64,000 bases of DNA from an uncultured virus (IMG/VR IMGVR_UViG_3300020579_000010) (IMGVR_UViG_3300020579_000010); one strand, 5' to 3'. Numbered from the stretch's first letter, positions 4,039 through 51,259 are shown. Notes: a model not told the origin generated them from the sequence alone. Made by a program: numbers and translations.

Positions 4039-4237
4039 CTGTGGGTATTGTCAGTCCGCGTTCGCGTATCGGACGCGTGAAAGGCGAGTAACCTGTATGC
4101 CACAGCCGATCGAAAATGGGCAAGTCCTCTGCGTCAGGTTCTGCTCTTTGACGATTCGTCCCGACGGCCGAAAAGGTCTGCCAAATTTTCACGGACTTGA
4201 AGAAGTACTTCAAGGTTATTTGTATTCTACAACTTAG

Positions 4238-4590
4238 TGGAAGCGCTGGGAATCGAACCCAGGTCCAGCAAGTTTCGTATCCCATCATCTACGTACATAT
4301 TCGGTGATTGGCTCCACCGACAGAAGGGGCTGAATCGGTTTCCCGATTTTCACCGTCCACCAGCGAGGTTTTGCGAGACTCGCGCTCGTAATGGGTAATG
4401 GTGACTCTGTTGGGTTCACACCAATGACGATACCGAGTCGTCTACGTCATTGATGGCGAAGCGGTTCTTAGGCCGCGTTCGCGATTGCGTTGTCGTTCGC
4501 AATTGGGCTTGCTCGATTGGTCAGACCGGATCGAGCGCCGCTCATACGCAGATGGGATCTTCCTCTCACTGTCGAAACCATTTCGCTCCC
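4238..4590 (-). ncRNA. ssrA: tmRNA, tag peptide ANDNAIANAA* (4500-4468)
   Basis: 5' GGGAGCGAAATGGTTTCGAC; 3' GGACCTGGGTTCGATTCCCAGCGCTTCCA; acceptor stem with G3-U70; internal tag ORF. Confidence 0.95.
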
Positions 4591-4619: not shown

Positions 4620-5246
4620 TTAGCGCAAAGTGACGTCCTCGCCAAGATCGTCGGCATCGGGTGCTTCGGGCGGAGGCGGCGGCTTCGGTTTTGCTTCGCG
4701 GCCGAAGACGGCCTTGTGTCGTGATTGGTTTCTACGGAGCGGTCCTTGCCAGCGCTCCCAGCGATGGAACATGCCGCAGAGGATGCAGGCGTCGCGAAAT
4801 CCCTTCGACGAGACGTAGACGACGTTTTCGCCGAGCGGCTTGGACCAGTCGCAGACGATGTAGCTGCTGCTCCCGTGGAGCATCACCTGGAAGTTGCCGA
4901 GCCTGAGGGGTTTGCCGTGCACATCGGTCGGAAGGAGAATGAGTTTTGAGTAGAAAGTCGCGCCTTTGTAGCGCGGGGCCTTCTCGATGACTTGGCCCTT
5001 GTCGTCCTTCCATTTCCGGAAAGACCTCTTCGCAAACCCCACATCCTTGCGAAGCCCTGGAAGAATCGCTTGAGGCTCGACCTCTTGGTCTTCGAAGTCG
5101 TAGACGACTGGGCGTCCCGAGTAGTTGGGATCGGCTTCGTAGAGCGCGAGCTGCTTAGCGCTCCCGACATCGACCCAGTCGCGTCGACGATTGCATGGCT
5201 CGTCGCAGCCATTGAGACTACTATCAGTTGTTTGGGCGGCGCTCAT
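4620..5246 (-). CDS. Hypothetical protein; its 5' coding region carries a CRISPR repeat copy
   Basis: 208 aa, ATGA-coupled to 5243..5563. Confidence 0.65.
   Translation of the reverse strand: MSAAQTTDSSLNGCDEPCNRRRDWVDVGSAKQLALYEADPNYSGRPVVYDFEDQEVEPQAILPGLRKDVGFAKRSFRKWKDDKGQVIEKAPRYKGATFYSKLILLPTDVHGKPLRLGNFQVMLHGSSSYIVCDWSKPLGENVVYVSSKGFRDACILCGMFHRWERWQGPLRRNQSRHKAVFGREAKPKPPPPPEAPDADDLGEDVTLR
5183..5218 (+). repeat. Solitary CRISPR repeat (35/36 identical to array consensus)
   Basis: GTCGACGATTGCATGGCTCGTCGCAGCCATTGAGAC. Confidence 0.95.
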
Positions 5247-5563
5247 GGTTTGCGTTCTTTTATGATGTATTCAGGACGGTCCGGTCCTTGGCTAATCCAA
5301 GTTGGCATTTCAAGTTCGCACGGTACGCCGAAGATATAAATGCGGTAGTTTCCGATATGCGTTCCTTCCATTCTGAGACATCCAGGTATCTTCATAAGCA
5401 TGGGAACTTCTTGGAAGTCGACGATGAATAATTTAGGACCTTTATGGTCGCGTAGGCGTTGGATGAAGTGCTGGAAGTATTTCCTGTCCCAGTCTTCTAA
5501 GTCTTCTAAGTCTTGAATCGGCGACCGTGCAAGGTAGCTATCGATCTCTTCTTCAGCGCTCAC
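5243..5563 (-). CDS. Hypothetical protein
   Basis: 106 aa, operon packing. Confidence 0.6.
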   Translation of the reverse strand: MSAEEEIDSYLARSPIQDLEDLEDWDRKYFQHFIQRLRDHKGPKLFIVDFQEVPMLMKIPGCLRMEGTHIGNYRIYIFGVPCELEMPTWISQGPDRPEYIIKERKP

Positions 5564-5564
5564 G

Positions 5565-6101
5565 TCAAACCGCTCTCAGCCTGCGGAGCGCTCGAGCGAA
5601 GCTCTCGTTGCAAAGCGCGCCTTCGCGTCTGCGTTGGATGTGGTCTACAACTTCACGCCCGGGCTTCTTCGTGAGCTTCATCGTCGCGAGCGCGACGACG
5701 AGCCCGCTGCGGTTGAAACCCGCAAAACACGTGCATAGTACATGTTTTCCGGCTCGTACGCGGCGCTCGACCTTTCCACTGACAAAGGCTGCTTCCTTGA
5801 GATGGGGCATCGTGAGCTCGCAGTCGTCACTCAGAAAACGAATGACCTCGATGGAACGCGGAAGGATGGGCTGGAACTCTTGCGCGCAGAGTACGACGAC
5901 GTCGAAGCCGTGCATGTCGGCCGTGTGAACGGTGCTCGCAGCGCCTTGCCAGAGCGATCCTTGCTGAGTAGGAGGTTTTCCGCTGATGATGCGATCGGCG
6001 TCGAACGTCGCACGCGGAGGGTTCGGAACTGGGCGAGCTCTTCTGGGCGAGTAGTACACGGACTCCAGGTCGGGTGACGGAGAAGAAAATGAAGAGGTCA
6101 T
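5565..6101 (-). CDS. Dual-specificity/tyrosine protein phosphatase
   Basis: CX5R loop VLCTCFAGFNRSG; start chosen at ATGA overlap 6101. Confidence 0.85.
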   Translation of the reverse strand: MTSSFSSPSPDLESVYYSPRRARPVPNPPRATFDADRIISGKPPTQQGSLWQGAASTVHTADMHGFDVVVLCAQEFQPILPRSIEVIRFLSDDCELTMPHLKEAAFVSGKVERRVRAGKHVLCTCFAGFNRSGLVVALATMKLTKKPGREVVDHIQRRREGALCNESFARALRRLRAV

Positions 6102-6301
6102 CGCGTTGTTCGGTGAGTGGCACGGCGGAATAGCCACGCGGGTCTCTTCCTGTAGAACGCGGCGGCGCGGCGAGCGGTGGAGTAGGCGATAGCGAGGATT
6201 TGCTTCGCGCTTCGCTTTCTTCGCCTCGTGCGATTTTCGTGATGAAGGGTGCGAACGTTCTTTTCGAACGCGGCTTGGGTGCAGCGATGAATGAGCGGCA
6301 T
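6098..6301 (-). CDS. Small basic protein
   Basis: 67 aa, coupled to the phosphatase gene. Confidence 0.55.
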   Translation of the reverse strand: MPLIHRCTQAAFEKNVRTLHHENRTRRRKRSAKQILAIAYSTARRAAAFYRKRPAWLFRRATHRTTR

Positions 6302-9755: not shown

Positions 9756-10358
9756 GTGGACTACACCGGGGCGAAGCGTGACGGTGAAGACGAAGAGTCC
9801 ATCGAGCACGCTTTCTTTCGCCAAGTGTGCGAAGACCTCATCGCACGTGTTCACCCAGTCGAGCGGCAAGGACCACGAGGCGCGTCTTCTTCGCCTCGTC
9901 GCCACGAGATCATTTCAAGTTGGCGGCTCGCTGGCTATCGCTTCGCGACGCATTTGCTTCCGGTAAAACATGTTCGCACCCCTGAGGAGCTTCGCTCGTT
10001 CGTTGACGGACTCGAGCAACGATTGAACGAGTACGAGCTAGAGCACGAAAGCAAGATGCCTTGGGTGGAAGCCAGTGGAGAGGTCGACTGGGAGAAGATC
10101 GAATCGAAGGCGCAGAAATTTCTTCGGCTCGCTACTCACGCAGGGACGCCTCTTCATGAGGCTACAGCTGCTAGCGCAGCAATCGTGAAGATGATCGTGA
10201 GCGGCGATCTTTCGCTCTTGTCATTCGAACGCGTGCATGATCTCGTGTGGAAGTACAAACGGCTCAAGGAAGCGTTCAAGGTCGCTCGCTTGAAAAATCC
10301 CTCGGATTACTTGTACGGAACCCGCGAACAGCGCGAAGATGGCGAACGAAATCGTTGA
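9756..10358 (+). CDS. Hypothetical protein
   Basis: 200 aa; KFLRLA...HEA..A resembles DUF2786-like segments; ends 15 bp before the array. Confidence 0.6.
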   Translation: MDYTGAKRDGEDEESIEHAFFRQVCEDLIARVHPVERQGPRGASSSPRRHEIISSWRLAGYRFATHLLPVKHVRTPEELRSFVDGLEQRLNEYELEHESKMPWVEASGEVDWEKIESKAQKFLRLATHAGTPLHEATAASAAIVKMIVSGDLSLLSFERVHDLVWKYKRLKEAFKVARLKNPSDYLYGTREQREDGERNR

Positions 10359-10373
10359 CGCCCACGTGCCGAT

Positions 10374-11001
10374 GTCAACGATTGCACGGCTCGTCGCAGC
10401 CATTGAGACCCGGTACGCAGGCGGCATCGTCGCCTTCAGCACGTGGAGTCGACGATTGCACGGCTCGTCGCAGCCATTGAGACACGACGAGGGCAGGTAC
10501 AAGTGGGCGATCGTCTACGAGACGTCGACGATTGCACGGCTCGTCGCAGCCATTGAGACACGTGATGATGCCGTTGGGGAGCGCCACAGGTTGCGGCGGT
10601 CGACGATTGCACGGCTCGTCGCAGCCATTGAGACGAGGGTCCACACGAGTACGCTCACAGCGCCCGCCAGCAGGTCGACGATTGCACGGCTCGTCGCAGC
10701 CATTGAGACAGCCCACGAACGAAGGTGAGAGCAAAGGTGTCACCGCGTCGACGATTGCACGGCTCGTCGCAGCCATTGAGACGCAACTGTGCGCGAGCGT
10801 CTCGTCGGTGCCGCGCGCGTCGACGCTTGCACGGCTCGTCGCAGCCATTGAGACCTCCCAGCAGGGATTCCAAGTACACGTGTCCTTGGGCGTCGACGAT
10901 TGCACGGCTCGTCGCAGCCATTGAGACAGACCGCACCTGTCGTGCCGCCCGTCGCGCCGCTCACGGTCGACGATTGCACGGCTCGTCGCAGCCATTGAGA
11001 C
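10374..11001 (+). CRISPR. CRISPR array, 9 repeats (36 bp) and 8 spacers (36-40 bp)
   Basis: Repeat GTCGACGATTGCACGGCTCGTCGCAGCCATTGAGAC at 10374, 10448, 10524, 10599, 10674, 10747, 10819, 10892, 10966; single variants in repeats 1 and 7. Strand inferred from the ATTGAGAC 3' end. Confidence 0.98.
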
Positions 11002-11020
11002 TCCTCTCTGGAGAGAGTTG

Positions 11021-12886
11021 TCATTCTGCGCTGTTATCGCTGGCATTGCGAAAGGTTCCCATTCGCTGCTGCTTTTCGGTCCGAAGACGTCTTGCTTTTT
11101 TCCATCTCCCCTCTGATTTCGCCGCTTTGGCATTGCGAGCGCCTCCGGCATTTTGCGCTTTACGCCACCGCTCGCAAAGGTTGTTGCTCGCACGCACGTC
11201 CTGGTCTTGCTTGGCACCACACGACGAGCACGTTACATCGATTTCAGTTTCCGCATCCAATCCACGATCGACGACGCCACACGCTGTGCACGTTCGCGTT
11301 GTATCTTCACATGGCGCAAGCTCGACACGTCCGCCGTGGGAGATAAAAGCCTCTTCGAGGGCTTGGCGTAGCTCGCTTGTTGCTGCGAGGTGTCTGTTTG
11401 ACCTTGCCGTCTCGTTCTCTGGTTCCATCTCCGTTTGAGCTCGGCGGGCGAACTTTCGGAGATCCATGGGTTTGGTTCGGTCATCTTCTGCTCGATCTTC
11501 GAGTACCAGCACCTCGTATTTTTCCGCGAGCCGAGCCCCGAACACTCGGTACTTTTCGCGTCGCCGTCGCAGCGCCTTGGTGCGCTGATCGCATTCCCAT
11601 TGGTAGTGCTGGCTGTCCCAGTACCTCCAAGACTCGAGCAAATCGAAGACCTCTTCATCGTTTGCGAAGCGCTCCTTGCTCCAACGCTTCGAGAGCGAGA
11701 CAAGCCTAGCCGGTGAACGCCACACATGCATATGCAGCGTCGACATGGAAAGCCACGCTGGAACTTCGAGCGTCGCAAGCTTGTCTCGCACAATGAGACG
11801 AATCGCATCAAACCTCTTGTCTCGAATGCTCCTGATTTCATCTGCCTTGCGTAAACGCGTAATCTCATGAGGACTAAGACGAAGCTCACCAATGTCCTGA
11901 CCGTCTTCTGATGCGTAGGCGCACACACGGAGACCTGCGTCGTCATCCGTGACAACACGCCAGCCGATGTCGACTCCCACGGCTCCTTCGACTCCGCCGC
12001 CGCGTCCCCACCCGTGCTCTTCGCGAATTGCGCTCGTTACGTTCGGGCATTCAATCGTAAGCTCGGCGGACCATATCTCACGCGAGCTGTGGCGGCGCAA
12101 AGAAACGTTGCATCTTTTGATACGCGCCGCGGGCGGAAGAGGTCGATGCATGATGAGAGGCCAAGATGCCCAAACTGGCTTGCGTCCTTCTGATCCGACA
12201 CGTAGCGAAAGAGTGCGAAGAGTTCGCACGTGCTTGCCGTCGTTCCAATTCGGTTCGCTGATGCGAAGTCGTGTATCTTCAGAGCTGAGCACCTCGCCAG
12301 GCGTCATGCCATTTTGAATTTGCATTCCGATTTGACCTTCGCCAGTCCAGCGTTCAAAGCGAGGATCATTCGGCGTAGAATCGTCGTAAAGCGGCTGCTT
12401 CGCAGCGGCCTTGACCTCGTCTTCGGCAAGTAGATACGAGCCCCAATACGACGTCGTGAGCGCTCGGGCTCCACGAACGAGCTCGGCTGCGCGTTCGTTG
12501 ATGACATCGCGTGCAGAAATCATTTCTGGACGAACACGCGCTCGGCAATCATAGAGTGCTTGCGATGTCGTACGTCTCACGATTCGGGCCTGTTTGACGC
12601 GTTCTTTCATCACGTTTGTTTCGGATCGGCTGCGAGACTTGCTGCGAGCAAGGCGAATGGCTTGGCGTGACTCTTCCAGCTCCACGAGCGCTGCACGTGA
12701 AGCTGCCATCGCCGTAGCAAGCTCAGAATGTTGCTCCTCGACGTTTCTCATCGCCGTACGTCGACCTCTTTCGATTTCGATGAGCGTGTTGCGATAGTCG
12801 TGTTTGGCACGAAGCTGCGCCCGTACGAGCGCTTCGTTCTGAATGGGTCGAAGAAGACCGTACTTGTAGACTCGAATCATCGTCAT
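11021..12886 (-). CDS. cas12m: Compact type V effector, Cas12m (V-U1/V-M)-like, 621 aa
   Basis: VYKYGLLRP, YWGSY, FERWTGEGQIGMQIQNGM, PLIMHRPLP motifs; RuvC-I GVDIGWR, RuvC-II LVLED, CxxC..CxxC, RuvC-III DQDVRASNNL; adjacent to array. Start re-assigned to ATGA overlap at 12886. Confidence 0.8.
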   Translation of the reverse strand: MTMIRVYKYGLLRPIQNEALVRAQLRAKHDYRNTLIEIERGRRTAMRNVEEQHSELATAMAASRAALVELEESRQAIRLARSKSRSRSETNVMKERVKQARIVRRTTSQALYDCRARVRPEMISARDVINERAAELVRGARALTTSYWGSYLLAEDEVKAAAKQPLYDDSTPNDPRFERWTGEGQIGMQIQNGMTPGEVLSSEDTRLRISEPNWNDGKHVRTLRTLSLRVGSEGRKPVWASWPLIMHRPLPPAARIKRCNVSLRRHSSREIWSAELTIECPNVTSAIREEHGWGRGGGVEGAVGVDIGWRVVTDDDAGLRVCAYASEDGQDIGELRLSPHEITRLRKADEIRSIRDKRFDAIRLIVRDKLATLEVPAWLSMSTLHMHVWRSPARLVSLSKRWSKERFANDEEVFDLLESWRYWDSQHYQWECDQRTKALRRRREKYRVFGARLAEKYEVLVLEDRAEDDRTKPMDLRKFARRAQTEMEPENETARSNRHLAATSELRQALEEAFISHGGRVELAPCEDTTRTCTACGVVDRGLDAETEIDVTCSSCGAKQDQDVRASNNLCERWRKAQNAGGARNAKAAKSEGRWKKARRLRTEKQQRMGTFRNASDNSAE

Positions 12887-13092
12887 TTTTCTCGCCTCTT
12901 CTCTTTTTGGCGCTGCTCTTCGATGATTGCGTCGAGACCTTTTCGCAGCGCAGATCGAAAGATGTCGGTGCGTGTAACCGTTGCAAATCCATGCTCCGTA
13001 GCCCGCTTGGCACAGCCACTTGCGTCCTCGACCCACTTTCGAGGCATCTTGATCGTCATCGACTGAGTGTTATCGCTGCGAGGTCTGGGCAT
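12883..13092 (-). CDS. Ribbon-helix-helix-like regulator
   Basis: TIKMP..W...TRTDIFRSALRKGL; paralog of 45458..45691. Confidence 0.7.
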   Translation of the reverse strand: MPRPRSDNTQSMTIKMPRKWVEDASGCAKRATEHGFATVTRTDIFRSALRKGLDAIIEEQRQKEKRREK

Positions 13093-13100
13093 GTCCCAGC

Positions 13101-13129
13101 ACGTTACAGCGCGTAGTGCACTCTGTCAA
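13101..13129 (-). promoter_or_regulatory. sigma70 promoter TTGACA-N17-TAACGT for the RHH-cas operon (probably leaderless)
   Basis: -10 ends 8 nt before ATG 13092; palindrome CTGGG-CATGT-CCCAG over the start codon. Confidence 0.65.
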
Positions 13130-18345: not shown

Positions 18346-18419
18346 GGTGGATGTAGCCAAGTGGTCAAGGCGCTGCGTTGTGGCCGCAGTATGCGCGGGT
18401 TCGATCCCCGTCATCCACC
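18346..18419 (+). tRNA. tRNA-His(GTG)
   Basis: Cloverleaf, G-1, ctgcg-ttGTGgc-cgcag. Confidence 0.92.
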
Positions 18420-18722
18420 CTGATGGGCGAAAAAAGTTCTTGCGCGTTTCGAAAATCCATGTCGTAGTAGCTGAAGAGATTCCGATGCATTCCATAGCGA
18501 AATCCACCTTACTGACCCGGAGGCCGCTGAGCCAATCAGCAGCGCTTTCAGGGTCGTGGTGCACCCCTTCGGGTATCGCGAAGCGCGTCATTTTGTGCCC
18601 AGTTGGACTCGATAGCTCGACACCCATGTATCCGGCCTCCCTCGGCGAACCCAAGTTCGCGACGCGCAATCAGGAGGCCGGTACCTAGAGGCGGATTTTC
18701 TTCTCGCGCAAGTAGCGCAAAG

Positions 18723-18762
18723 GAAAGCCGCCTCGGGAAATCGAGAGCGGCTTTCGTCGTTT
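18723..18762 (+). terminator. Terminator-like hairpin in the tRNA-array leader
   Basis: GAAAGCCGC...GCGGCTTTC followed by GTCGTTT. Confidence 0.45.
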
Positions 18763-18904
18763 CAGGGCTCAAAAATTCAAAACGCTCGGATAACGCACTA
18801 GGGATTTGTCCTTTGCGTGACTGCCGATCACAGGAGACGTGTATCCAATGCAACCTATCACCGAACGTGAGAGCTATCGGAGCTCCGACTGCTCATATCC
18901 CAAT

Positions 18905-18987
18905 GGGGTGCGTTCGGAGCAGTGGAAGCTCTAGCCGGTTGTAACCCGGTGGCCTTATGGCAAGTGGTTCGACTCCACCGTGCCCCA
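18905..18987 (+). tRNA. tRNA-Tyr(GTA)
   Basis: Cloverleaf, long variable arm. Confidence 0.88.
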
Positions 18988-19057
18988 CGAAGAAAGACCC
19001 AGTCATGAAACTCAAACGCAAGAACGTGCCCGTGAAAGACGGGCCAAAAACCAAGGA

Positions 19058-19130
19058 GGATTCGTAGCTCAATCGGCAGAGCAATCGGCTTTTACCCGAG
19101 AGGTTGTGGGATCGTTGCCCACCGAATCCA
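19058..19130 (+). tRNA. tRNA-Lys(TTT)
   Basis: Cloverleaf. Confidence 0.88.
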
Positions 19131-19135
19131 CATTT

Positions 19136-19208
19136 GGGTTCGCAGCTCGATTGGCCGAGCAGCCGGTTCTTACCCGGAAGGTTGAGGGATCATCCCCCTC
19201 CGAACCCA
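19136..19208 (+). tRNA. tRNA-Lys(CTT)
   Basis: Cloverleaf. Confidence 0.85.
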
Positions 19209-19215
19209 CAAGTGA

Positions 19216-19286
19216 TCGGGCTTCGTCTAATGGCAAGACATCCGCCTCTGGAGCGGAGAATGAGGGTTCGACCCCCTCGGCCCGAA
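19216..19286 (+). tRNA. tRNA-Gln(CTG)
   Basis: Cloverleaf. Confidence 0.9.
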
Positions 19287-19414
19287 CCGGCGCTCGCGGA
19301 AGCGCTTGACCCTTGAAAACTTGAAAGGACGTGGCGCGTGCGGGCTCCCTCGAGCTTGCATGGGTAGCCTCTCCTGTTCGTCAAGAAACACGGGAGCGCC
19401 CTCGGCTCCCACAT

Positions 19415-19489
19415 TCACGGAGTCTCAGTGCTGGTACTGATCCGCGGCTGTTAACCGCGCCGTCCCTGGTTCGATTCCAGGTCCGTGAG
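19415..19489 (+). tRNA. tRNA-Asn(GTT)
   Basis: Cloverleaf. Confidence 0.9.
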
Positions 19490-19513
19490 CTTAGAGCGTG
19501 CTAATGGATAACT

Positions 19514-19909
19514 GTGCTAGACAACAGATTGCTTCCGCCCAGCAAAAGACGTCTTACCCCCTATCGAAGAGAATATCTGACGATTGCGATGGTAGAGCGT
19601 CGACGTCAGATGAAGTCCAGAGCAGTGGCCTACAAAGGCGGTCGCTGCCAGAAATGTGGATACAAGAAGTGTCAAGCCGCTTTCGAGTTTCATCATCCTG
19701 ATCCGTTGGAAAAGGATTTCAATATTTCTAGGTTTGGTACCAAGTCTTTCGAGAGACTCAAACCAGAATTGGACAAGACGATTCTCCTTTGCGCGAATTG
19801 TCACCGGGAAGTGCACGACGAGATCAACGTCGCATCTCTTCGAGTTCGGAAGTCGAAGTTTGACCGTGTACCGAAACCTGCAAGAGGTGCGCGCTCTCAT
19901 AAAAAGTAA
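19514..19909 (+). CDS. HNH endonuclease within the tRNA array
   Basis: CQKCGY...FEFHH...LLCANCHREVH; start uncertain. Confidence 0.88.
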   Translation: MLDNRLLPPSKRRLTPYRREYLTIAMVERRRQMKSRAVAYKGGRCQKCGYKKCQAAFEFHHPDPLEKDFNISRFGTKSFERLKPELDKTILLCANCHREVHDEINVASLRVRKSKFDRVPKPARGARSHKK

Positions 19910-19910
19910 T

Positions 19911-19980
19911 GCCGACGTGACGAGGCGTCACCGCTCCCTTGTAGCGAGCGAGGCTTGGGTTCGAGATCCCATCGTCGGCT
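19911..19980 (+). tRNA. tRNA-Thr(TGT)-like, degenerate
   Basis: Acceptor GCCGACG/CGTCGGC, T-arm present; irregular D and anticodon arms. Confidence 0.55.
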
Positions 19981-19984
19981 CTGC

Positions 19985-20058
19985 GCCCGTATAGCTCCAA
20001 GGCGGAGCACTGGTTTCGTAAATCAGTGGGAGCGGTTCGATTCCGCTTGCGGGCTCCA
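19985..20058 (+). tRNA. tRNA-Thr(CGT)
   Basis: Cloverleaf, CCA encoded. Confidence 0.9.
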
Positions 20059-20059
20059 T

Positions 20060-20131
20060 GCGCGATTCTTCTAGTGGTCAGGATGGTGGCTTTTCAACCC
20101 GCCAAGACGAGTTCGATTCTCGTATCGCGCG
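20060..20131 (+). tRNA. tRNA-Glu(TTC)
   Basis: Glu-type D arm; anticodon loop slightly enlarged. Confidence 0.7.
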
Positions 20132-20220
20132 CTACTTCAAAAACGTGGGGGCCTAAAAACCTCCGACCGCGCAAAGCGGCCCCGTTGCTCTATCCGGCGG
20201 CGAATAAGATGGAGCGCTAT

Positions 20221-20296
20221 GTCCCTATCGTCTACTTGGCAAGGACACCTGTTTCTCAATCAGGAAAACAGAGTTCAAATCTCTGTAGGGACGCCA
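20221..20296 (+). tRNA. tRNA-Glu(CTC)
   Basis: Cloverleaf, CCA. Confidence 0.88.
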
Positions 20297-20297
20297 T

Positions 20298-20373
20298 GGT
20301 CAGTTAGCTCAATTGGTAGAGCGCGAGTTTGAAGCACTCGGCGTAGGGGGTTCGAATCCCTCACTGACCACCA
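20298..20373 (+). tRNA. tRNA-Phe(GAA)
   Basis: Cloverleaf, CCA. Confidence 0.93.
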
Positions 20374-20377
20374 GTGA

Positions 20378-20453
20378 CTAGGTGTAGCTCAATCTGGTAG
20401 AGCGCTCCGTTTGGGTCGGAGATATAAGAGTTCAAATCCCTTCATCTAGACCA
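20378..20453 (+). tRNA. tRNA-Pro(TGG)
   Basis: Cloverleaf, CCA. Confidence 0.88.
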
Positions 20454-20454
20454 T

Positions 20455-20538
20455 GCCACCGTGGCGAAGTTGGTATACGCGTAGCGTTGAGGTCGCTATG
20501 TCCGAAAGGGCGTGTAGGTTCGAACCCTATCGGTGGTA
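20455..20538 (+). tRNA. tRNA-Leu(GAG)
   Basis: Cloverleaf, long variable arm. Confidence 0.92.
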
Positions 20539-20542
20539 CTGA

Positions 20543-20617
20543 GGGCACGTAAGTCTAATTGGCAAAGCTTCGATGCCTAAAACATCGAGTGTGTCCGTTC
20601 GAATCGGACCGTGCCTA
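20543..20617 (+). tRNA. tRNA-Leu(TAA), short variable arm
   Basis: cgatg-ccTAAaa-catcg. Confidence 0.75.
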
Positions 20618-20621
20618 CTGA

Positions 20622-20696
20622 GTGAGCGTAAGTCTAATTGGTAAAGCTCCGAAGCTCAAACCTTCGGGTTTGTGAGTCCGAATCTCACCGCTCACA
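20622..20696 (+). tRNA. tRNA-Leu(CAA), short variable arm
   Basis: cgaag-ctCAAac-cttcg. Confidence 0.8.
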
Positions 20697-20707
20697 CCGT
20701 CAAACAT

Positions 20708-20780
20708 CTCCTCGTCTCGGCGGATTCCGAGCAGCTGTTTCCTAAACAGTTTGTACCGTGTTCGACTCACGGCGAGGAGG
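20708..20780 (+). tRNA. tRNA-Arg(CCT)
   Basis: Cloverleaf. Confidence 0.85.
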
Positions 20781-20784
20781 CTAC

Positions 20785-20857
20785 GCCCTCGTATGCATCT
20801 GGCGAGGCAGCTCCGCTGTCTACGGAGTGAGGCTCGGTTCGATTCCGGCCGAGGGCG
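20785..20857 (+). tRNA. tRNA-Asp(GTC)
   Basis: Cloverleaf. Confidence 0.88.
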
Positions 20858-20861
20858 CTAT

Positions 20862-20932
20862 ACGGCGAAGTGCAGGGCACAACAGAGATTCCAATCCTCT
20901 GGAAGAAAGTTCGATTCTTTCTCGCCGTGCCA
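20862..20932 (+). tRNA. tRNA-Trp(CCA)
   Basis: Cloverleaf with short D arm, G73, CCA. Confidence 0.75.
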
Positions 20933-20933
20933 T

Positions 20934-21004
20934 GGGTCGATAACACAACGGGCGTGTGCTAGCGTCGCAAGCTAGAAATGCGAGTTCGATTCTCGCTCGA
21001 TCCA
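20934..21004 (+). tRNA. tRNA-Ala(CGC)
   Basis: Cloverleaf, G3-U70. Confidence 0.88.
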
Positions 21005-21017
21005 CTGCTACGTATTT

Positions 21018-21091
21018 GGGTCCTTAGCTCCAATTGGGAGAGCGCCAGGTTTGCACCTTGGAGGTTGTCGGTTCGATCCCGACAGGATCCA
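21018..21091 (+). tRNA. tRNA-Ala(TGC)
   Basis: Cloverleaf, G3-U70. Confidence 0.92.
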
Positions 21092-21092
21092 C

Positions 21093-21239
21093 CGAGTCAC
21101 TGTCACTCATGCAGCGCATACACGCAAATTCGCCTTTGGAGCGAGAGGTCATCGGTTCGAGTCCGATCACGAAGCTTCGGCTTCGCGTAGCTCAGTTGGT
21201 AGAGCGCTTACAACGCATTGCATACTCGACAGTCACTCG
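21093..21239 (+). ncRNA. Circularly permuted tRNA-like RNA (YrlA/Y-RNA-like tRNA mimic)
   Basis: Order: anticodon-like arm, T arm, acceptor stem closed by TTCG, D arm; all inside a long 5'/3' stem CGAGTCACTGTC/GACAGTCACTCG. Confidence 0.75.
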
Positions 21240-21242
21240 ATT

Positions 21243-21314
21243 GCTGACGTAGCTCCAAGGCGGAGCGCCATCTTGGTATGATGGAGGGATGGGGTCCGAT
21301 TCCCCTCGTCAGCT
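21243..21314 (+). tRNA. tRNA-Thr(GGT)
   Basis: Cloverleaf. Confidence 0.85.
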
Positions 21315-21421
21315 CTGGCGCAGCCGCTCTCAGGAGCTAGGCAAACTTGTTCGTGCATGGGCAAGCAAGCTGAAAAGCACTCCGCGGAGGGTGGATGAAA
21401 GGTCCACGGCGCCGCCAGTAC

Positions 21422-21492
21422 GCGGGAATGGCAGAATGGTTATGCACTCGGTTTCCACCCGAGATATCGGAGTTCGATTCTCCGTCCCCGCT
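21422..21492 (+). tRNA. tRNA-Gly(TCC)
   Basis: Cloverleaf. Confidence 0.9.
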
Positions 21493-21496
21493 CTAT

Positions 21497-21566
21497 GCAG
21501 GTGCAGCTCGAAGGTCGAGCACGTGGTTGCCATCCACGAGGCGGGGTTCGATTCCCCTCACCTGCT
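21497..21566 (+). tRNA. tRNA-Gly(GCC)
   Basis: Cloverleaf. Confidence 0.88.
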
Positions 21567-21571
21567 CTAGT

Positions 21572-21640
21572 GAGTCTGTTCGCTGGCGCGGCGACGGGTC
21601 TGCAAAATCCGTTTCGAGGGTCCAATTCCCTCCAGACTCT
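21572..21640 (+). tRNA. tRNA-Cys(GCA)
   Basis: Cloverleaf, reduced D arm, U73. Confidence 0.75.
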
Positions 21641-21644
21641 CTAT

Positions 21645-21716
21645 GCTCTCGTCCTAATGGATTAGGCGACCGCCTTCTAAGCGGTATGGTTGCGTGTTCG
21701 AATCACGCCGAGAGCG
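21645..21716 (+). tRNA. tRNA-Arg(TCT)
   Basis: Cloverleaf. Confidence 0.88.
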
Positions 21717-21848
21717 CGAAGTGGTAAGTGGTGATGTCGTGCATACAGTCCACACCGGGCTTGTAACCTGGTCTTTGTGGTGACTCACTGAGTGCATGAC
21801 AGAACCAGAAGTCGCTAGTCACGATTTCAGCTTTCCACTTCGATATCT

Positions 21849-21922
21849 CTCTCCGTCGTAGCGGATCTACGCATGGGTCTACGAAGCCCATTGTCTGTGT
21901 TCAACTCACAGCGGAGAGACCA
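21849..21922 (+). tRNA. tRNA-Arg(ACG)
   Basis: Cloverleaf, CCA. Confidence 0.88.
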
Positions 21923-21931
21923 ATTCTCATT

Positions 21932-22002
21932 GCCTTCGTCATAGTGGATCTATGCCCGACGCTTCGAACGTCGATGTCTGAGTTCGAGTCTCAGCGAAGG
22001 CT
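21932..22002 (+). tRNA. tRNA-Arg(TCG)
   Basis: Cloverleaf. Confidence 0.85.
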
Positions 22003-22003
22003 C

Positions 22004-22080
22004 CGCGGAGAGAGGTAGACATAGTCCTCACTAGCGCTCATAACGCTAGCAATCTGGGTGCAACACCAGCTCCGCAACCA
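22004..22080 (+). tRNA. tRNA-Met(CAT), initiator-like
   Basis: C1xA72 mismatch, CCA. Confidence 0.8.
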
Positions 22081-22081
22081 A

Positions 22082-22150
22082 CGCTGCGAGCATGGGATGC
22101 CGCTGGTTCTCATACGACCAAGTGCGACGGTCCGAATCCGTCCGCAGCGA
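22082..22150 (+). tRNA. tRNA-Met/Ile2(CAT)
   Basis: Cloverleaf, reduced D arm. Confidence 0.7.
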
Positions 22151-22182
22151 CGGGGCTCCGGATCACGGTCCGTCCCTCTAAC

Positions 22183-22257
22183 GCCAACGTAGACCAATTG
22201 GTAGGAGTCGCCTCGTTTAGACCGAGGACAGTGTGGGTCCGAATCCCTCCGTTGGCA
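22183..22257 (+). tRNA. tRNA-Leu(TAG), short variable arm
   Basis: cctcg-ttTAGac-cgagg. Confidence 0.85.
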
Positions 22258-22261
22258 CTAT

Positions 22262-22335
22262 TGGGGTATCGTCTAACGGTAAGACGGCAGATTTTGAATC
22301 TGCTTATTAGAGTTCGATTCTCTATGCCCCAACCA
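22262..22335 (+). tRNA. tRNA-Gln(TTG)
   Basis: Cloverleaf, CCA. Confidence 0.92.
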
Positions 22336-22336
22336 T

Positions 22337-22412
22337 CAAGGTGTAGCTCAATCTGGTAGAGCGCTCCGTTCGGGTCGGAGATATAGGAGTTCAAATCCCC
22401 TCACCTTGACCA
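22337..22412 (+). tRNA. tRNA-Pro(CGG)
   Basis: Cloverleaf, CCA; near-copy of tRNA-Pro(TGG) at 20378. Confidence 0.9.
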
Positions 22413-22413
22413 C

Positions 22414-22484
22414 AGGTCCATCGTCCAACGGCAGGGCACCGGTTCTACACTCCGGGGATGGCGGTTCGAACCCGTCTGGACCTA
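22414..22484 (+). tRNA. tRNA-Val(TAC)
   Basis: Cloverleaf. Confidence 0.8.
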
Positions 22485-22488
22485 CTGA

Positions 22489-22561
22489 GGGAGGCGAGTA
22501 GGCTGGTGCCTGCGCCGTCTCGACAAGGCGGATTCGATGGGTTCGATCCCCGTGCCTCCCA
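22489..22561 (+). tRNA. tRNA-Val(GAC)
   Basis: Cloverleaf. Confidence 0.85.
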
Positions 22562-22565
22562 CTAG

Positions 22566-22641
22566 CCGCCGGTAGTTCAATAGGTTTCAGAACCTTCGGC
22601 TCATAACCGAACATGTACCAGTTCGAATCTGGTCTGGCGGA
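22566..22641 (+). tRNA. tRNA-Ile2/Met(CAT)
   Basis: Cloverleaf. Confidence 0.85.
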
Positions 22642-22675
22642 CAGTCTGCTAATCTTCTTATTCGTCATTCAACTC

Positions 22676-22751
22676 GGGCGAATCGTCCAATGGTTTAGGA
22701 CCGCTCTCTGATAAGGAGCAAATCACAGTTCAATTCTGTGTTCGCCTACCA
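22676..22751 (+). tRNA. tRNA-Ile(GAT)
   Basis: Cloverleaf, CCA. Confidence 0.9.
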
Positions 22752-22768
22752 ACCCGAAAGAAACCGTC

Positions 22769-23296
22769 ATGTCTCCCTCATCCACTCTCATCCTCAATCA
22801 CTACATGGTTCCGCATAGAGTCTGCTCTTGGCAAGACGCCATCACTGAGCTCTTCACTGGCAAGGTGGAGATCATCGACTGGTACGATGAAGTCGTCTAC
22901 TCGAACGCGGAGCGCGGCATCACGATGAAGATGCCAGCCGTTGCTCGACTCTTGAAGCCCGTCAGCGCGTTCAAGAAGGGTGTGAAGTTTTCGCGAGTCA
23001 ACGTCATGGCTCGAGACAACTTCGTCTGTCAGTACTGCGGCAAGCGTCACGCGATGGGTAACCTCAACTACGACCACGTCGTTCCGCGTGTACAGGGCGG
23101 CAAGACCGTATGGGACAACATCGTAACGTCATGTTACGAGTGCAATGACAAGAAGGGCGCTCGCACCCCCGAGCAAGCGAAGATGAAGCTCATTCGCAAG
23201 CCCTTCCGTCCCAAGACTCTTCCGCTCGCACAGCCCGTGCTTGCGATGAAGAACATCCTCGCAGAGTGGCAACCGTACGTGGTTGCCACGATGTAA
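22769..23296 (+). CDS. HNH endonuclease (McrA-like)
   Basis: RDNFVCQYCG...NYDHVVPRVQGGKTVWDNIVTSCYECNDKKG. Confidence 0.93.
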   Translation: MSPSSTLILNHYMVPHRVCSWQDAITELFTGKVEIIDWYDEVVYSNAERGITMKMPAVARLLKPVSAFKKGVKFSRVNVMARDNFVCQYCGKRHAMGNLNYDHVVPRVQGGKTVWDNIVTSCYECNDKKGARTPEQAKMKLIRKPFRPKTLPLAQPVLAMKNILAEWQPYVVATM

Positions 23297-23325
23297 ACGA
23301 AGCGTCGTCCTACGGATCGACATCT

Positions 23326-23399
23326 CGGAGTGTGGCTCAGTCTGGTAGAGCGCTCGGTCGGGGTCCGAGAGATCACAGGTTCAAATCCTGTCACTCCGA
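23326..23399 (+). tRNA. tRNA-Pro(GGG)
   Basis: Cloverleaf. Confidence 0.92.
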
Positions 23400-23410
23400 C
23401 TACGAATTAT

Positions 23411-34300: not shown

Positions 34301-34651
34301 CATCCCGTTCTGTCCATTGCGGGACTTGGTGTGGCTGCGCTCGGCGTGGACTACTTCGTAGAGGGCGACAAGTCCATCGCAGCATCGTTCTATCGCAGCA
34401 TCTTCGGCAGTGGCGACGGGGAGCATGGGAAAAGAGGTCTTGCGCCGCACAAGGTCGTACCGAGAGGCATGCCCGAAGCGCCCGCTCAAGTGGCGCCAGT
34501 ACTCGAGTACCTTCCCGGTTACTACCCAGCGTTTCCAGCTCACTACCATCCGCACTGGGGTCATCACGCAAGGGGTTTCCATGGCGAGATGATTCGAAGA
34601 GGTCACTACGGACGTGATTGGGGTCACGAAGGTGGACGAGGTCATGGCTGA
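31390..34651 (+). CDS. Eight small Gly/His/Pro/Trp-rich, mostly membrane proteins (31390-31992, 32079-32384, 32389-32853, 32870-33355, 33406-33783, 33800-33985, 33996-34265, 34274-34651)
   Basis: Head-to-tail ORFs with TM helices and low-complexity tails. Confidence 0.65.
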
Positions 34652-35531
34652 GAGTGGCGCGATTCTGCTGGGCGTGCTCGGTTGCGGCGTCGCCGTATTC
34701 GCCGTTGACTACGCCATGTCAGAACCCGGCGACTCGTGGTTCGATCAGATCAAGGCGAAGCTCGAATCGCACCCAGCTCCGCAAGGCGAAGACGAAGGCA
34801 AAGGCCGGAGACGCACGCCGACACTGAAGCGCATTGCGCCGCCATCACCGCATTCTCGGACGCTGCCGCCACATGTTTCGCAGACGCAAAGACAACCGCG
34901 TCAACCACAATCTTTCACACAGCAGCCGTCATCGCAGACTTGGCAAGCACCACCGGTTCGTCCGCCGCCTCAACGTCAAATCGTTGATCAAGCCAAGGCG
35001 ACAGCGCAAAACCTCATCTCGAAGACGTTTGGCGGTCCTCCATCGATGCCAAAGACCAAGTCCGGTGGCGCTGACTTCGGCGTGCAGGAGACGCAGCACA
35101 TGCTCAACACCTTCTTCCAAGGTCACGTCATCAAAGAAGACGGCAAGATGGGTCCGCGCACGAAAGACGCCATCGTGCAGTTTCAACAAGCGCAGAAGCT
35201 CCCTCAAACGGGCATCGTCGATCAGAAGACGCACGATTTTCTCGTGCAGATTTCGACACCTTTGACGACGAATCCACTCACGCAGGCTTCTTCCTCGAGG
35301 ACTTCTTTCTTCCCATCCGCACGAACAAGCGTTGGCGCTCTTGGTGGCGGTGACTGGAAGGCGGAAACAGCGTCTTTAGGCAAGGCTGCGCAAGACATCA
35401 TCTCTCACGCCATCAGCGAAGGCGATCCTCGCACGCTGACGCCACTCTCGAAGCTGCTCGCTGCAGCGGGCTTCTCTCAGGCGGCTAGCGCTTCGCACTC
35501 AGGTCATAGCGACATCGGACCAGGATTCTGA
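34644..35531 (+). CDS. Membrane protein with peptidoglycan-binding domain
   Basis: TQHMLN...EDGKMGPRTKDAIVQFQQAQKLPQTGIVD. Confidence 0.85.
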   Translation: MAESGAILLGVLGCGVAVFAVDYAMSEPGDSWFDQIKAKLESHPAPQGEDEGKGRRRTPTLKRIAPPSPHSRTLPPHVSQTQRQPRQPQSFTQQPSSQTWQAPPVRPPPQRQIVDQAKATAQNLISKTFGGPPSMPKTKSGGADFGVQETQHMLNTFFQGHVIKEDGKMGPRTKDAIVQFQQAQKLPQTGIVDQKTHDFLVQISTPLTTNPLTQASSSRTSFFPSARTSVGALGGGDWKAETASLGKAAQDIISHAISEGDPRTLTPLSKLLAAAGFSQAASASHSGHSDIGPGF

Positions 35532-43160: not shown

Positions 43161-43206
43161 CTGATTGACACGCTTCGTGATACCCGAAGGGGTAAGGACT
43201 TCGAAC

Positions 43207-44502
43207 ATGCGTAAACAGACCAAAATTCTCGGCATTGCAGCAGGCGCAGTTGGCGCTGGGTGGCTCTACTCGCACGCAAAGACGAAGAAGTCGTTTGACC
43301 GAGTTGGCGCGGACACCGATGACTCAGGCGGCAGCTTGCTCGACGATCTTGCTGCATCCATTCGTCGCGGATTCGGTGGAGGTGGCGGAGCTCCTCGCAT
43401 TTATCATCGTTCTCAGTCTCAGATGCAGCAGCCACAGGGTCGTCCACAGGGATACCCGCAAGCACGTCCTTCAGTGATGCACGCGCCCTATCATCCTTAC
43501 GGCGGCGGTCAGGGCTACGGTGGCCAGCAGGGCTACGGTGGACAGCAGGGCTACGGTGGCCAGCAGGGCTACGGTGGCCAGCAGTACGGAGCGCCGTCGC
43601 AGCAGTACGGAGCGCCGTCGCAGCAGTACGGAGCGCAGCAATACGGCGCGCAGCCAGGTGGCGTGACGTACACGCCTACGCAGATGCCAGTACAACGTCC
43701 TCTCGTGACGTCACCTCTTCCGACGCCGCACGAGACCTCGGCGAATTTTTCCGAGGACCGCGGCGCGACGCCTGTCGCGCGCACGGGCAAGTTCATCTCG
43801 AAGCTCTTCGGCGGTCCGCCTTCGACGCCTCAAGGCGGAATCGACGATCAACTTCTTCGAACGCAGCGGGGTCTCAATCAGTTTTATGGATACATGATGC
43901 TCAAAGAAGACGGCATCATGGGAGACAATTCGAGACGCGTACTGATTCAATTTCAGCACGACACGGACTTGCCCCAAACAGGGAAAGCCGACGGAGCGAC
44001 ATACGACAAAGTCACGCACCTCGTCGAACAAAAGCGCCGAGGTCAGGCCGCATACGGAGCAGACGATGGCGGCGATGATGACGCAGTCTCTCGCATTCAT
44101 CGCCGCTCGAAGACCTCTTCCACCTCTTCGTCTTCGCCCAGTCAGCCCATCGATCGCAGCAATCCCGATTGGTCCACAGGCCTCAAGGAGTCCGCGCTCT
44201 TTTGGGCTTCGCCTCCGCCGCTCACGCTTGCACGTCTCATGCGCAAAGACCACGTCGCGGAAGATGCTGCTACACATGCGACGACAGGTACTCAAGCAGG
44301 TGGCTGGTACGACGCATTCACGCCTCCGAGCTTTCCGTGGATTCCGAGTAGCGGATACGGCTTCCCGTACATCGAGCAGCCGCCCCCGCTCTTCGGCAAC
44401 AGCGGCTTCGGTGGCTACGGGCACATCGGTCACGGCGGCCCGCAAGGACTCGGCGGCTACGGGAGCTGGGGCTCGCACGGCGGCTGGGGCCATGGCTTCT
44501 AG
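43207..44502 (+). CDS. Membrane protein with GYGGQQ repeats and peptidoglycan-binding domain; paralog of 34644..35531
   Basis: TQRGLN...KEDGIMGDNSRRVLIQFQHDTDLPQTGKAD. Confidence 0.8.
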   Translation: MRKQTKILGIAAGAVGAGWLYSHAKTKKSFDRVGADTDDSGGSLLDDLAASIRRGFGGGGGAPRIYHRSQSQMQQPQGRPQGYPQARPSVMHAPYHPYGGGQGYGGQQGYGGQQGYGGQQGYGGQQYGAPSQQYGAPSQQYGAQQYGAQPGGVTYTPTQMPVQRPLVTSPLPTPHETSANFSEDRGATPVARTGKFISKLFGGPPSTPQGGIDDQLLRTQRGLNQFYGYMMLKEDGIMGDNSRRVLIQFQHDTDLPQTGKADGATYDKVTHLVEQKRRGQAAYGADDGGDDDAVSRIHRRSKTSSTSSSSPSQPIDRSNPDWSTGLKESALFWASPPPLTLARLMRKDHVAEDAATHATTGTQAGGWYDAFTPPSFPWIPSSGYGFPYIEQPPPLFGNSGFGGYGHIGHGGPQGLGGYGSWGSHGGWGHGF

Positions 44503-50482: not shown

Positions 50483-51259
50483 ATGAGCGAAGAAAAAGAT
50501 GAAAAGGTGACAGTCGAACAAGAAGATGAACAGAAGAGATCCTCTTCTGATGAGCAGAAGACCTCTAAGAGGGCCTCTTCCTCGATGACGGAGATCCTTC
50601 CCGGCATCAAGATGACTGATCCTCGTCCGACAGATCTCGAAATCTTTTTTCGCATCATGCCGCACATCCTCGGTGGCTGGGCAGGCAAGACCACGGACGT
50701 TCGCAGCGCAAACTCGAGCGCATTCATCCAGGCGCGCGAGGCACTCGGGCAAATGGCGATGATGGGGGTCGTGCGCGCGAGCTTCGTGTGCAACGACCGT
50801 TCGCACCTCGCGGTGATGCCCACGGGCGGTCATCCACAAATGCAGCAACAACCGCAGCAGCAGCAAGGAATGGCACAAGGTCAGCCCATGACTTCTCCGG
50901 GCAGTGGCGGCATGACGCAGCAGTACCCAACGAACGGCTATGGGCCAGGCGTGCAGCCTCCTCCGCAGAGCTCTCAAGCCGGTCAGGGCGGTCAAGTTGG
51001 TATTGGAGGCATGGTGCAGATGTTTCCGATGCATCAGGCAGCGCCGACCGTGCACGGCGCGCCGAACTTCGGTGACGGTTCGAAGGGCGTACTCACCAAC
51101 ATGTACCCGACGCCGGGAGCCGTTCCCGTTCCACCGATGGGACCTCCGCCACCTCCGCAACAGCCCTTCGCACAAGGCCAAGCAGCACCGTACAGCGGGT
51201 TCGCAGCTCCGCCCCAGTACCCATCGCCACCGCAGTACCCGCCGCAAGGATTTTCGTGA
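50483..51259 (+). CDS. Gln/Pro-rich hypothetical protein
   Basis: 258 aa. Confidence 0.7.
   Translation: MSEEKDEKVTVEQEDEQKRSSSDEQKTSKRASSSMTEILPGIKMTDPRPTDLEIFFRIMPHILGGWAGKTTDVRSANSSAFIQAREALGQMAMMGVVRASFVCNDRSHLAVMPTGGHPQMQQQPQQQQGMAQGQPMTSPGSGGMTQQYPTNGYGPGVQPPPQSSQAGQGGQVGIGGMVQMFPMHQAAPTVHGAPNFGDGSKGVLTNMYPTPGAVPVPPMGPPPPPQQPFAQGQAAPYSGFAAPPQYPSPPQYPPQGFS

Follow-up and report, generated by a model that had tools for sequence, protein, structure and literature searches.

A virus-borne Cas12m locus with an intact D-E-D triad on a probable large soil phage

CRISPR systems of type V-M (formerly V-U1), whose effector is the protein Cas12m, have been described from a bacterial plasmid, from actinobacterial hosts and, in a preprint, from a phage. 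Here we examine a locus of this kind on a 64,000-nucleotide (nt) stretch of DNA from an uncultured virus (IMG/VR IMGVR_UViG_3300020579_000010), the whole of which is called the window below. The locus consists of a gene for a 621-amino-acid (aa) effector and a nine-repeat array, and we consider it likely that it equips a probable large soil phage with an RNA-guided DNA binder, which would silence its targets rather than cut them.

MvCas12m of myxophage MV-1 (bioRxiv 10.64898/2026.09.14.751636) is a close match to the window locus when the two are compared by description. The preprint, of September 2026, presents a V-M system with eight spacers, without cas1/cas2/cas4 or a trans-activating CRISPR RNA (tracrRNA), and with an intact D-E-D triad of acidic residues in the RuvC domain of the effector; no spacer targets were found there, and the protein is called the first phage Cas12m. 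MvCas12m has 610 aa and the triad D305/E463/D555 and belongs to a virus predicted to be temperate, whereas the window protein has 621 aa and the triad D306/E463/D563. A virus-borne D-E-D Cas12m with an array is thus already in print.

MsCas12m, which is encoded on plasmid pMESIL02 of Allomeiothermus/Meiothermus silvanus (NC_014214.1), shares with the window locus the D-E-D triad, a co-oriented downstream array and the lack of a tracrRNA. The two proteins are 29.9% identical over 92% of the query in tblastn (1e-39) and 33% identical in a multiple alignment. Unlike the window protein, MsCas12m has 536 aa, comes from a bacterial plasmid, and was shown biochemically to bind without cutting (PMC11013384). 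The best solved relative is PDB 23vw, a 577-aa chain deposited as 'CRISPR-associated DNA-binding protein Cas12m', which matches residues 8-572 (4.3e-57), shows D, E and D where it aligns with the RuvC triad and carries the same Zn-ribbon. No paper was found for this entry, and it is not among the Foldseek matches listed. MmCas12m2 (8hhl/8hio) and GoCas12m (8pm4), both from actinobacterial hosts, resemble the window protein in fold (TM-score on the query, TMq, 0.75 and 0.73, respectively), in domain order, in their long Arg-rich REC helices and in the use of a single pseudoknotted CRISPR RNA (crRNA). On the other hand, they are 20-22% identical to it and have an H-D-D triad (PMC10442227, PMC11013384).

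On the viral side, Virus Rctr197k (KX853510.1, Caudoviricetes, 197 kb) encodes a homolog that is 33.6% identical over 92% of the query (2e-64). It has the D-E-D triad and the same repeat family, and a CRISPR region is annotated 34 nt past the gene. In contrast to the window locus, its array is much longer (about 1.5 kb) and its gene is annotated as a misc_feature 'similar to transposase'; the record (locus L078, 3956-7372) does not name its homolog as Cas12m. The Cas12j (CasPhi) systems of huge phages likewise pair a small array with a compact type V effector and lack adaptation genes. Cas12j is an active nuclease and its crRNA is processed in the RuvC site. The window protein belongs to a different family, the Foldseek TMq values with Cas12j being 0.25-0.31.

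Effector, array and crRNA scaffold

A first-pass annotation of the window, made from the sequence alone, had placed the 621-aa effector 19 nt from a nine-repeat array, and the coordinates of the open reading frame (ORF) and of the repeats confirm this arrangement (Table 1). Two points go beyond it: gene and array lie on the minus strand, and the window contains a tenth copy of the repeat. The cas12m ORF begins with an ATG at 12886 and ends with a stop codon at 11021-11023. This start agrees with the consensus that 48 aligned homologs give for the N-terminus (M..xRVYxYGLL); an alternative longer frame with a GTG start extends to 13036. Each of the Cas12m motifs quoted in the annotation could be located in the translation (KYGLL at residue 8, YWGSY at 147, QIQNGM at 189 and HRPLP at 247). 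The acidic RuvC residues, which had been described as intact, are indeed present in the segments GVDIG (D306), VLVLED (E463) and DQD (D561/D563), so that the triad is D306/E463/D563, and the Zn-ribbon has its CxxC pairs at 533/536 and 553/556.

Table 1. Coordinates of the features of the Cas12m locus, the solitary repeat and neighbouring genes in the window
Feature	Position	Strand	Basis and remarks
tmRNA (transfer-messenger RNA) gene	4237-4590	-	tag peptide ANDNAIANAA
Conserved phage gene, 208 aa, function not assigned	4620-5246	-	homologs; solitary repeat near 5' end
Spacer-like sequence directly 3' of solitary repeat	5143-5182	-	with the repeat, one unit of about 75 nt
Solitary tenth repeat, 35/36 identical	5183-5218	-	repeat and covariance search; 5.2 kb from array
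CRISPR array, nine 36-nt repeats and eight spacers	10374-11001	-	repeat search, sequence
Gap between cas12m stop and first repeat, 19 nt	11002-11020	-	sequence; without separate leader
cas12m gene (type V-M / V-U1 effector), 621 aa	11021-12886	-	ORF and translation
Small ORF, 69 aa (58 aa from M12)	12883-13092	-	sequence; stop overlaps cas12m ATG (ATGA)

The Cas12m-like identity proposed in the annotation is borne out by profile searches, by sequence matches in the PDB and by the fold, which agree with each other. The PADLOC profiles PDLC00930 (Cas12u1; 7.7e-85) and PDLC01692 (1.8e-86) are matched over positions 2-532 of 533 and 1-531 of 532, respectively. When the protein was compared with all PDB chains by phmmer, five Cas12m sequences matched over approximately residues 1-573 with values from 4.3e-57 to 6.4e-9, among them, in this order, 23vw (4.3e-57), Cas12m2 (4.8e-24), UnCas12m4a (5e-20) and GoCas12m 8pm4 (6.4e-9). 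Chains of Cas12f, TnpB and Fanzor reached 6.8e-4 or worse and were limited to residues 505-573, i.e. the C-terminal Zn-ribbon region. An AlphaFold2 model built from 48 homologs (pLDDT 88.3, pTM 0.81) has the Cas12m cryo-electron microscopy (cryo-EM) structures at Foldseek ranks 1-4, with TMq 0.65-0.75 and TM-scores on the target (TMt) of 0.75-0.79; Cas12f structures follow with TMq of at most 0.44. The model contains long helices at residues 18-52, 54-84 and 91-143 and a helical block (339-456) between RuvC strands. Judging from the whole-model match, the protein is predicted to adopt the bilobed Cas12m fold with WED, REC including the 'Roof', RuvC and Zn finger.

Pfam recognises the C-terminal TNB Zn-ribbon alone in the effector, and the NCBIfam TnpB models match at the C-terminus with scores far under their cut-offs (NF040570, 23.2 bits with a cut-off of 100; NF038281, 14.4 with a cut-off of 425). 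Such weak TnpB or 'transposase' matches, which NCBIfam and PHROG give for the C-terminal region only, are what would speak for a TnpB-like transposon nuclease next to a chance cluster of repeats, with no CRISPR system at all. We assign this explanation a practically negligible chance, because the TnpB scores are so low, the matches along the full length are to Cas12m, the nine near-identical repeats with unique spacers yield a covarying crRNA scaffold (see below), and the order of gene then array recurs in 34 of 54 viral loci. Membership of the IS200/IS605 TnpB family was also tried and rejected: the family-level profile match failed, and the CRISPR array occupies the place of the omega-RNA. 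From the PADLOC profiles, the PDB sequence matches and the fold, together with the repeat scaffold, the effector is a Cas12m.

The repeat reads GTCTCAATGGCTGCGACGAGCCGTGCAATCGTCGAC on the effector strand. The array has a repeat period of 72-76 nt, and its eight spacers are unique and 36-40 nt long. Allowing up to three mismatches, ten copies of the repeat are found in the window compared with none in each of 100 shuffles. Since the short gap behind the cas12m gene has no separate leader, gene and array probably share a transcript. The annotation had also noted the lack of cas1/cas2/cas4 and of a recognisable tracrRNA in the window, and scans with PADLOC and Pfam as well as a search for repeat complements came back empty. 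In particular, the Cas1/Cas2/Cas4 models gave no match in 94 ORFs of at least 60 aa plus one 69-aa ORF (PADLOC, E<=1e-3), nor was there a Pfam match to these proteins among 81 window ORFs of at least 80 aa (E<=1e-5). Repeat complements reaching 12 nt are absent from the whole 64 kb, and between 3 and 16 kb those reaching 11 nt are absent as well. By this sequence test there is no tracrRNA candidate.

An alignment of 12 full-length repeats, taken from arrays that follow homologous genes in related loci, gave the consensus GTnnCAAnGnC..GAC on the effector strand and revealed two stems that form a pseudoknot, positions 9-11 with 20-22 and positions 14-18 with 30-34. In these stems 91.7% of the cells are paired, compared with 72% in shuffled alignments (0 of 500 shuffles reach 91.7%) and 30-43% when the partners are slid. 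Stem II has compensatory two-sided changes in all five of its pairs across the 12 loci. Four G-U pairs of the stems would be C-A mismatches on the opposite strand, and since they fit only the effector strand, the transcribed strand is that of the gene. The paired positions coincide with those reported in a preprint for the PmCas12m crRNA by cryo-EM (-28..-26 with -15..-17 and -23..-20 with -3..-6; bioRxiv 10.64898/2026.03.26.714355). Variants within the window keep this scaffold. The distal repeat (10374-10409) has a C33>T exchange that turns a pair into G-U and leaves the stem in place, and the exchanges in the third repeat (T29>G) and in the solitary copy (G23>A) both fall on unpaired positions. 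A covariance model of the repeat finds 290 matches in the 800,719 bases of the window and the related loci, nearly all of them downstream of the gene and co-oriented with it, and it also detects the arrays beside MsCas12m and in Virus Rctr197k. The locus is therefore a genuine, well-formed type V-M CRISPR-Cas12m system of a kind already described.

RuvC triad, DNA binding and spacer targets

The intact triad had been the central point of the first-pass annotation, which took characterised Cas12m proteins to have substituted RuvC residues and hence saw a possibly nuclease-active or ancestral branch. In the light of the literature this premise is out of date. Omura 2023 (PMC10442227) refers to a scheme that divides Cas12m into four clades (Wu et al. 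2022), of which clades 3 and 4 have D-E-D or N-E-D, and four of the eight orthologs studied by Bigelyte 2024 (PMC11013384) have the typical D-E-D. Among the 120 closest database proteins, the query included, 102 have D-E-D, as do 31 of 54 IMG/VR loci (of the others, 21 have substitutions and truncation prevents the scoring of 2) and five of nine loci from metagenome-assembled genomes (MAGs). D-E-D is thus the usual state among Cas12m relatives. For a phylogenetic perspective we computed a midpoint-rooted FastTree phylogeny (LG+gamma) of 174 sequences, which comprise the 120 database proteins and 54 distinct locus proteins of at least 480 aa; shorter and duplicate locus proteins were left out. 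D-E-D occurs in 133 of these sequences, parsimony assigns it to the root and then requires 19 or more independent departures from it. It is therefore reasonable to propose that D-E-D is probably the ancestral state of the family, and, being both the majority and the inferred ancestral state, it marks out no special branch. Many triad-substituted Cas12m have retained their arrays (e.g. in loci L012, L028, L040 and L053). Since arrays persist after at least 19 losses of the triad, the triad is not needed for function or for retention of the array.

In the study of Bigelyte 2024 (PMC11013384), dsDNA (double-stranded DNA) cleavage was seen with none of the eight orthologs, including the four with D-E-D, whereas six of the eight bound DNA in a manner dependent on the protospacer-adjacent motif (PAM). 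Purified MsCas12m showed neither cis nor trans cleavage of DNA or RNA, and its processing of crRNA precursors was unchanged by the exchange D274A (PMC11013384). In our alignment D274 of MsCas12m (NC_014214.1) is placed opposite D306 of the window protein, and the E and D of the MsCas12m triad stand opposite E463 and D563. The same paper states that the 'Roof' element aids tight binding, and the Arg-rich long REC helices at residues 18-143 of the AlphaFold2 model appear to correspond to this element (PMC11013384). Furthermore, conversion of the HDD triad of Cas12m2 into DED did not restore cleavage (Omura 2023, PMC10442227).

These data bear directly on the idea of a nuclease-active Cas12m, in which the phage would destroy its targets because the D-E-D pocket cuts or nicks either the displaced strand or DNA that is single-stranded. 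In its favour, the acidic residues (all three) and the cysteines of the Zn-ribbon are in place, and retention of the triad in 102 of 120 relatives implies a pocket under selection. Omura 2023 (PMC10442227) raised the same possibility when speculating that clades 3 and 4 might cut; the destruction of a rival genome would benefit a phage, and the compact phage-borne Cas12j (CasPhi) appears as a genome editor in the reference list of the MV-1 preprint. Nevertheless, cutting of dsDNA was lacking in four of four D-E-D orthologs tested and cleavage of any kind in purified MsCas12m (PMC11013384), the engineered DED triad was inactive (PMC10442227), the closest solved relative (23vw) is a D-E-D protein deposited as a DNA-binding protein, and the 174-sequence tree has at least 19 losses of the triad, with arrays persisting. 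The nuclease-active reading is without positive support, and we hold it to be unlikely.

Based on published relatives, a mechanism for the preferred reading, silencing by DNA binding, can be sketched. A single transcript of the minus strand would probably cover both effector gene and array. Cas12m would bind the pseudoknotted 3' part of each repeat and trim the precursor, resulting in a crRNA that consists of the repeat handle followed by the guide and that would require no tracrRNA. The loaded protein would then locate a PAM-flanked dsDNA target, remain bound without cutting, as its published relatives do, and keep the target from being transcribed or replicated; this target is probably either a host gene or a mobile element in competition with the phage.

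The spacers themselves gave no second match in the window: neither the eight spacers, nor the sequence behind the array, nor the guide-like sequence of the solitary repeat recurs there (with a limit of 8 mismatches along the full length, 4 in 20 nt or 2 in 16 nt). A blastn search of the array gave one match among 50,697 phage records (E 0.6) and ten among 72,556 plasmid records (E 0.2-0.6), in both cases at chance level. In IMG/VR, no match was obtained with exact seeds (25-27 nt) taken from spacers 1, 2 and 7 and from the solitary guide, and the same holds for the repeat with one N. For host genomes, the array was searched against five MAGs in which relatives are encoded, 401 genomes from the phylum to which one of these MAGs belongs and 17 genomes of one family. 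The best match covers 30-31 of 33 nt and consists of the last 8 nt of the repeat and 25 nt of the GC-rich spacer 3. Such matches lie in the mfd gene (transcription-repair coupling factor) of five genomes of one family (L071, L072, L074, L076). As a target of spacer 3 this site was rejected and the match judged to be due to chance: it extends into the repeat, the PAM position would equal the repeat end, the whole spacer is never covered free of gaps, and dozens of similar-scoring matches occur in the same genomes. Logan contigs break at the array or collapse it, one of them joining position 10377 to 10970, which hides spacer turnover between samples.

Several observations weigh against our reading of the locus as a phage DNA binder that silences without cutting. 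Conservation of D306/E463/D563 in 102 of 120 close homologs argues for some role of the pocket. The negative cleavage assays in the literature cover four D-E-D orthologs only (PMC11013384), and MsCas12m, the tested D-E-D ortholog that can be aligned, is approximately 30-33% identical to the window protein. The eight spacers and the solitary guide gave no target, and interference is to that extent inferred only. With respect to the carrier, a search of the 64 kb for capsid, portal and terminase genes recognised none (E<=0.01), and the viral call comes from indirect features. Finally, only two exact contigs from one RNA library exist, one at the tmRNA gene (4247-4507) and one at 12791-13048, and DNA carry-over is possible; they give a faint hint of expression of the region.

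Carrier element and occurrence on viruses

The annotation had regarded the system as virus-borne, and the carrier does look like a large phage. A cluster of 31 tRNA genes spans 5 kb of the plus strand (18347-23400) and is interspersed with two HNH endonuclease genes (19514-19909 and 22769-23296), and a tmRNA gene lies elsewhere in the window (Table 1). PG_binding_1 domains occur in four ORFs (34614-35531, 43165-44502, 51256-51630 and 51639-52265), an unusual number for 64 kb. A DnaB-like helicase has a phage family, phrog_26214, as its best match (5.9e-85), and there are a weak match to a major tail protein (8.2e-8) and weaker ones to tail fibres. Most ORFs of the window match no family, and no housekeeping genes were found among the 94 ORFs. 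The regions 47589-48740 and 53027-54604 contain an ORF that combines a weak intein-splicing match (below the Pfam cut-off) with a helicase PHROG match and, separately, the DnaB-like helicase.

A plasmid or an integrated bacterial island with an ordinary cellular V-M defence locus would account for the missing capsid, portal and terminase matches, and relatives of the effector do occur on plasmids (12 records, including that of MsCas12m) and in MAG contigs. Such a non-viral element is nonetheless very unlikely to be the carrier, given the clustered tRNAs with their HNH genes, the tmRNA, the endolysin-type domains and tail-like matches, the phage PHROG of the helicase and the lack of housekeeping genes. 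Moreover, an identical locus is located on a 128.9-kb metagenome contig, a size suited to a large phage, and relatives are present on 54 IMG/VR contigs. Taken together, the carrier is very probably a large phage. The element is widespread in soils: sequence nearly identical to positions 10300-13100 was detected in 20 soil-metagenome runs (X1-X20) from 19 studies between 2018 and 2025; in nine of the runs at least half of the sampled words are present.

When IMG/VR was scanned with the guidance of a profile, relatives with 22-39% identity were found to be encoded in 54 distinct viral loci. An array of at least three repeats that starts at most 1 kb downstream of the gene accompanies 34 of these 54; 16 are without one and four are cut by the end of the contig. 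The 16 include locus L008, which has an array but whose ORF extension ran into it. Judged by these sequences, Cas12m with a mini-array is frequent among predicted viral contigs, and its carriage by viruses is far wider than stated in the MV-1 preprint.

A solitary repeat in a phage gene and neighbouring ORFs

Solitary repeat units and mini-arrays, where a lone repeat lies away from any array, occur on viral genomes. The tenth repeat of the window differs from these in that it belongs to the virus's own system and is in frame within a conserved gene of the phage (Table 1). It occupies codons 10-22 of this gene in the sense orientation, beginning 28 nt after the ATG, and its single mismatch, at the unpaired position 23, is synonymous. 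The ATG of the gene overlaps, in the sequence ATGA, the stop codon of the ORF upstream (5243-5563), and next on this strand comes the tmRNA gene. Since four database proteins with 99, 69, 67 and 48% identity match, the ORF is a real gene. The three divergent homologs (48-69%) lack about 25 codons at the site of the repeat, which corresponds to 75 nt or one repeat-spacer unit. Therefore, a conserved phage protein has received the unit as an in-frame insertion in its variable N-terminus. One near-identical relative (P0121, 99%) has the insertion in common. The spacer-like sequence that follows the repeat gave no match in the window (mismatches allowed) or in IMG/VR (exact seed).

Lone repeats were also seen in related loci. 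In L039, which has its array downstream, a repeat with one mismatch (5921-5956) lies about 45 nt upstream of the start of the tblastn match (6001). L048 has lone repeats at 4209 and 12321, next to the Cas12m homolog, and three MAG loci (L057-L059) contain a single repeat each.

From this arrangement one might suppose that gene regulation, in the phage itself or in the host, is the chief role of the system. The solitary repeat in the mRNA of ORF 4620-5246 would then serve Cas12m for binding and processing, and this would either turn the gene off post-transcriptionally or supply a ninth dedicated guide. The repeat is structurally intact, sense and in frame, it lies close behind the start codon of a conserved gene that lacks one repeat-spacer length in three homologs, lone repeats stand beside relatives (e.g. 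L039 and L048), and silencing is the mechanism of Cas12m (PMC11013384). On the other hand, the solitary guide is unmatched in the 64 kb and in IMG/VR, the insertion could be a neutral recombination scar in a tolerant, variable N-terminus, and it is shared with one near-identical relative (P0121) only. We therefore regard a chiefly regulatory system as a long shot, and return to silencing by DNA binding as the preferred reading of the locus. The solitary repeat may be a tolerated recombination scar. Alternatively, the mRNA of the gene in which it lies may be a substrate of Cas12m. In a more specific and distinctly improbable scenario, Cas12m would cut the phage's own mRNA at the embedded repeat, thereby switching the gene off and releasing a ninth, hard-wired guide, which would amount to a cis-regulatory RNA switch.

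Two further ORFs on the minus strand lie near the system. The 69-aa ORF whose stop codon overlaps the cas12m start matches no Pfam or PADLOC family, and no counterpart was found upstream of the gene in 63 related loci. Its weak language-model (Atlas) look-alikes include RHH and TraM DNA-binding clusters. As a lead, it may encode a DNA-binding regulator, perhaps one outside the CRISPR system. Between the solitary repeat and the array, ORF 5565-6137 contains a dual-specificity protein phosphatase domain (PF00782) that scores barely over the cut-off.

Should the embedded repeat indeed act on its own transcript, Cas12m would work on the phage's own mRNA as well as on DNA, and a CRISPR repeat would have been co-opted inside a coding sequence; the solitary in-frame repeat thus offers a concrete and cheap test of CRISPR repeats as RNA switches. 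The locus adds another natural Cas12m that is compact (621 aa) and tracrRNA-free and comes with its cognate repeat, a kind of protein for which there is demand as a small programmable DNA binder. For the family, it is important to note that an intact D-E-D triad in Cas12m is not to be taken as a sign of nuclease activity, and the conservation of this triad in a protein that would not cut raises a question for Cas12m as a whole. Phages, finally, are possibly a main habitat of the V-M subtype and not an exception.

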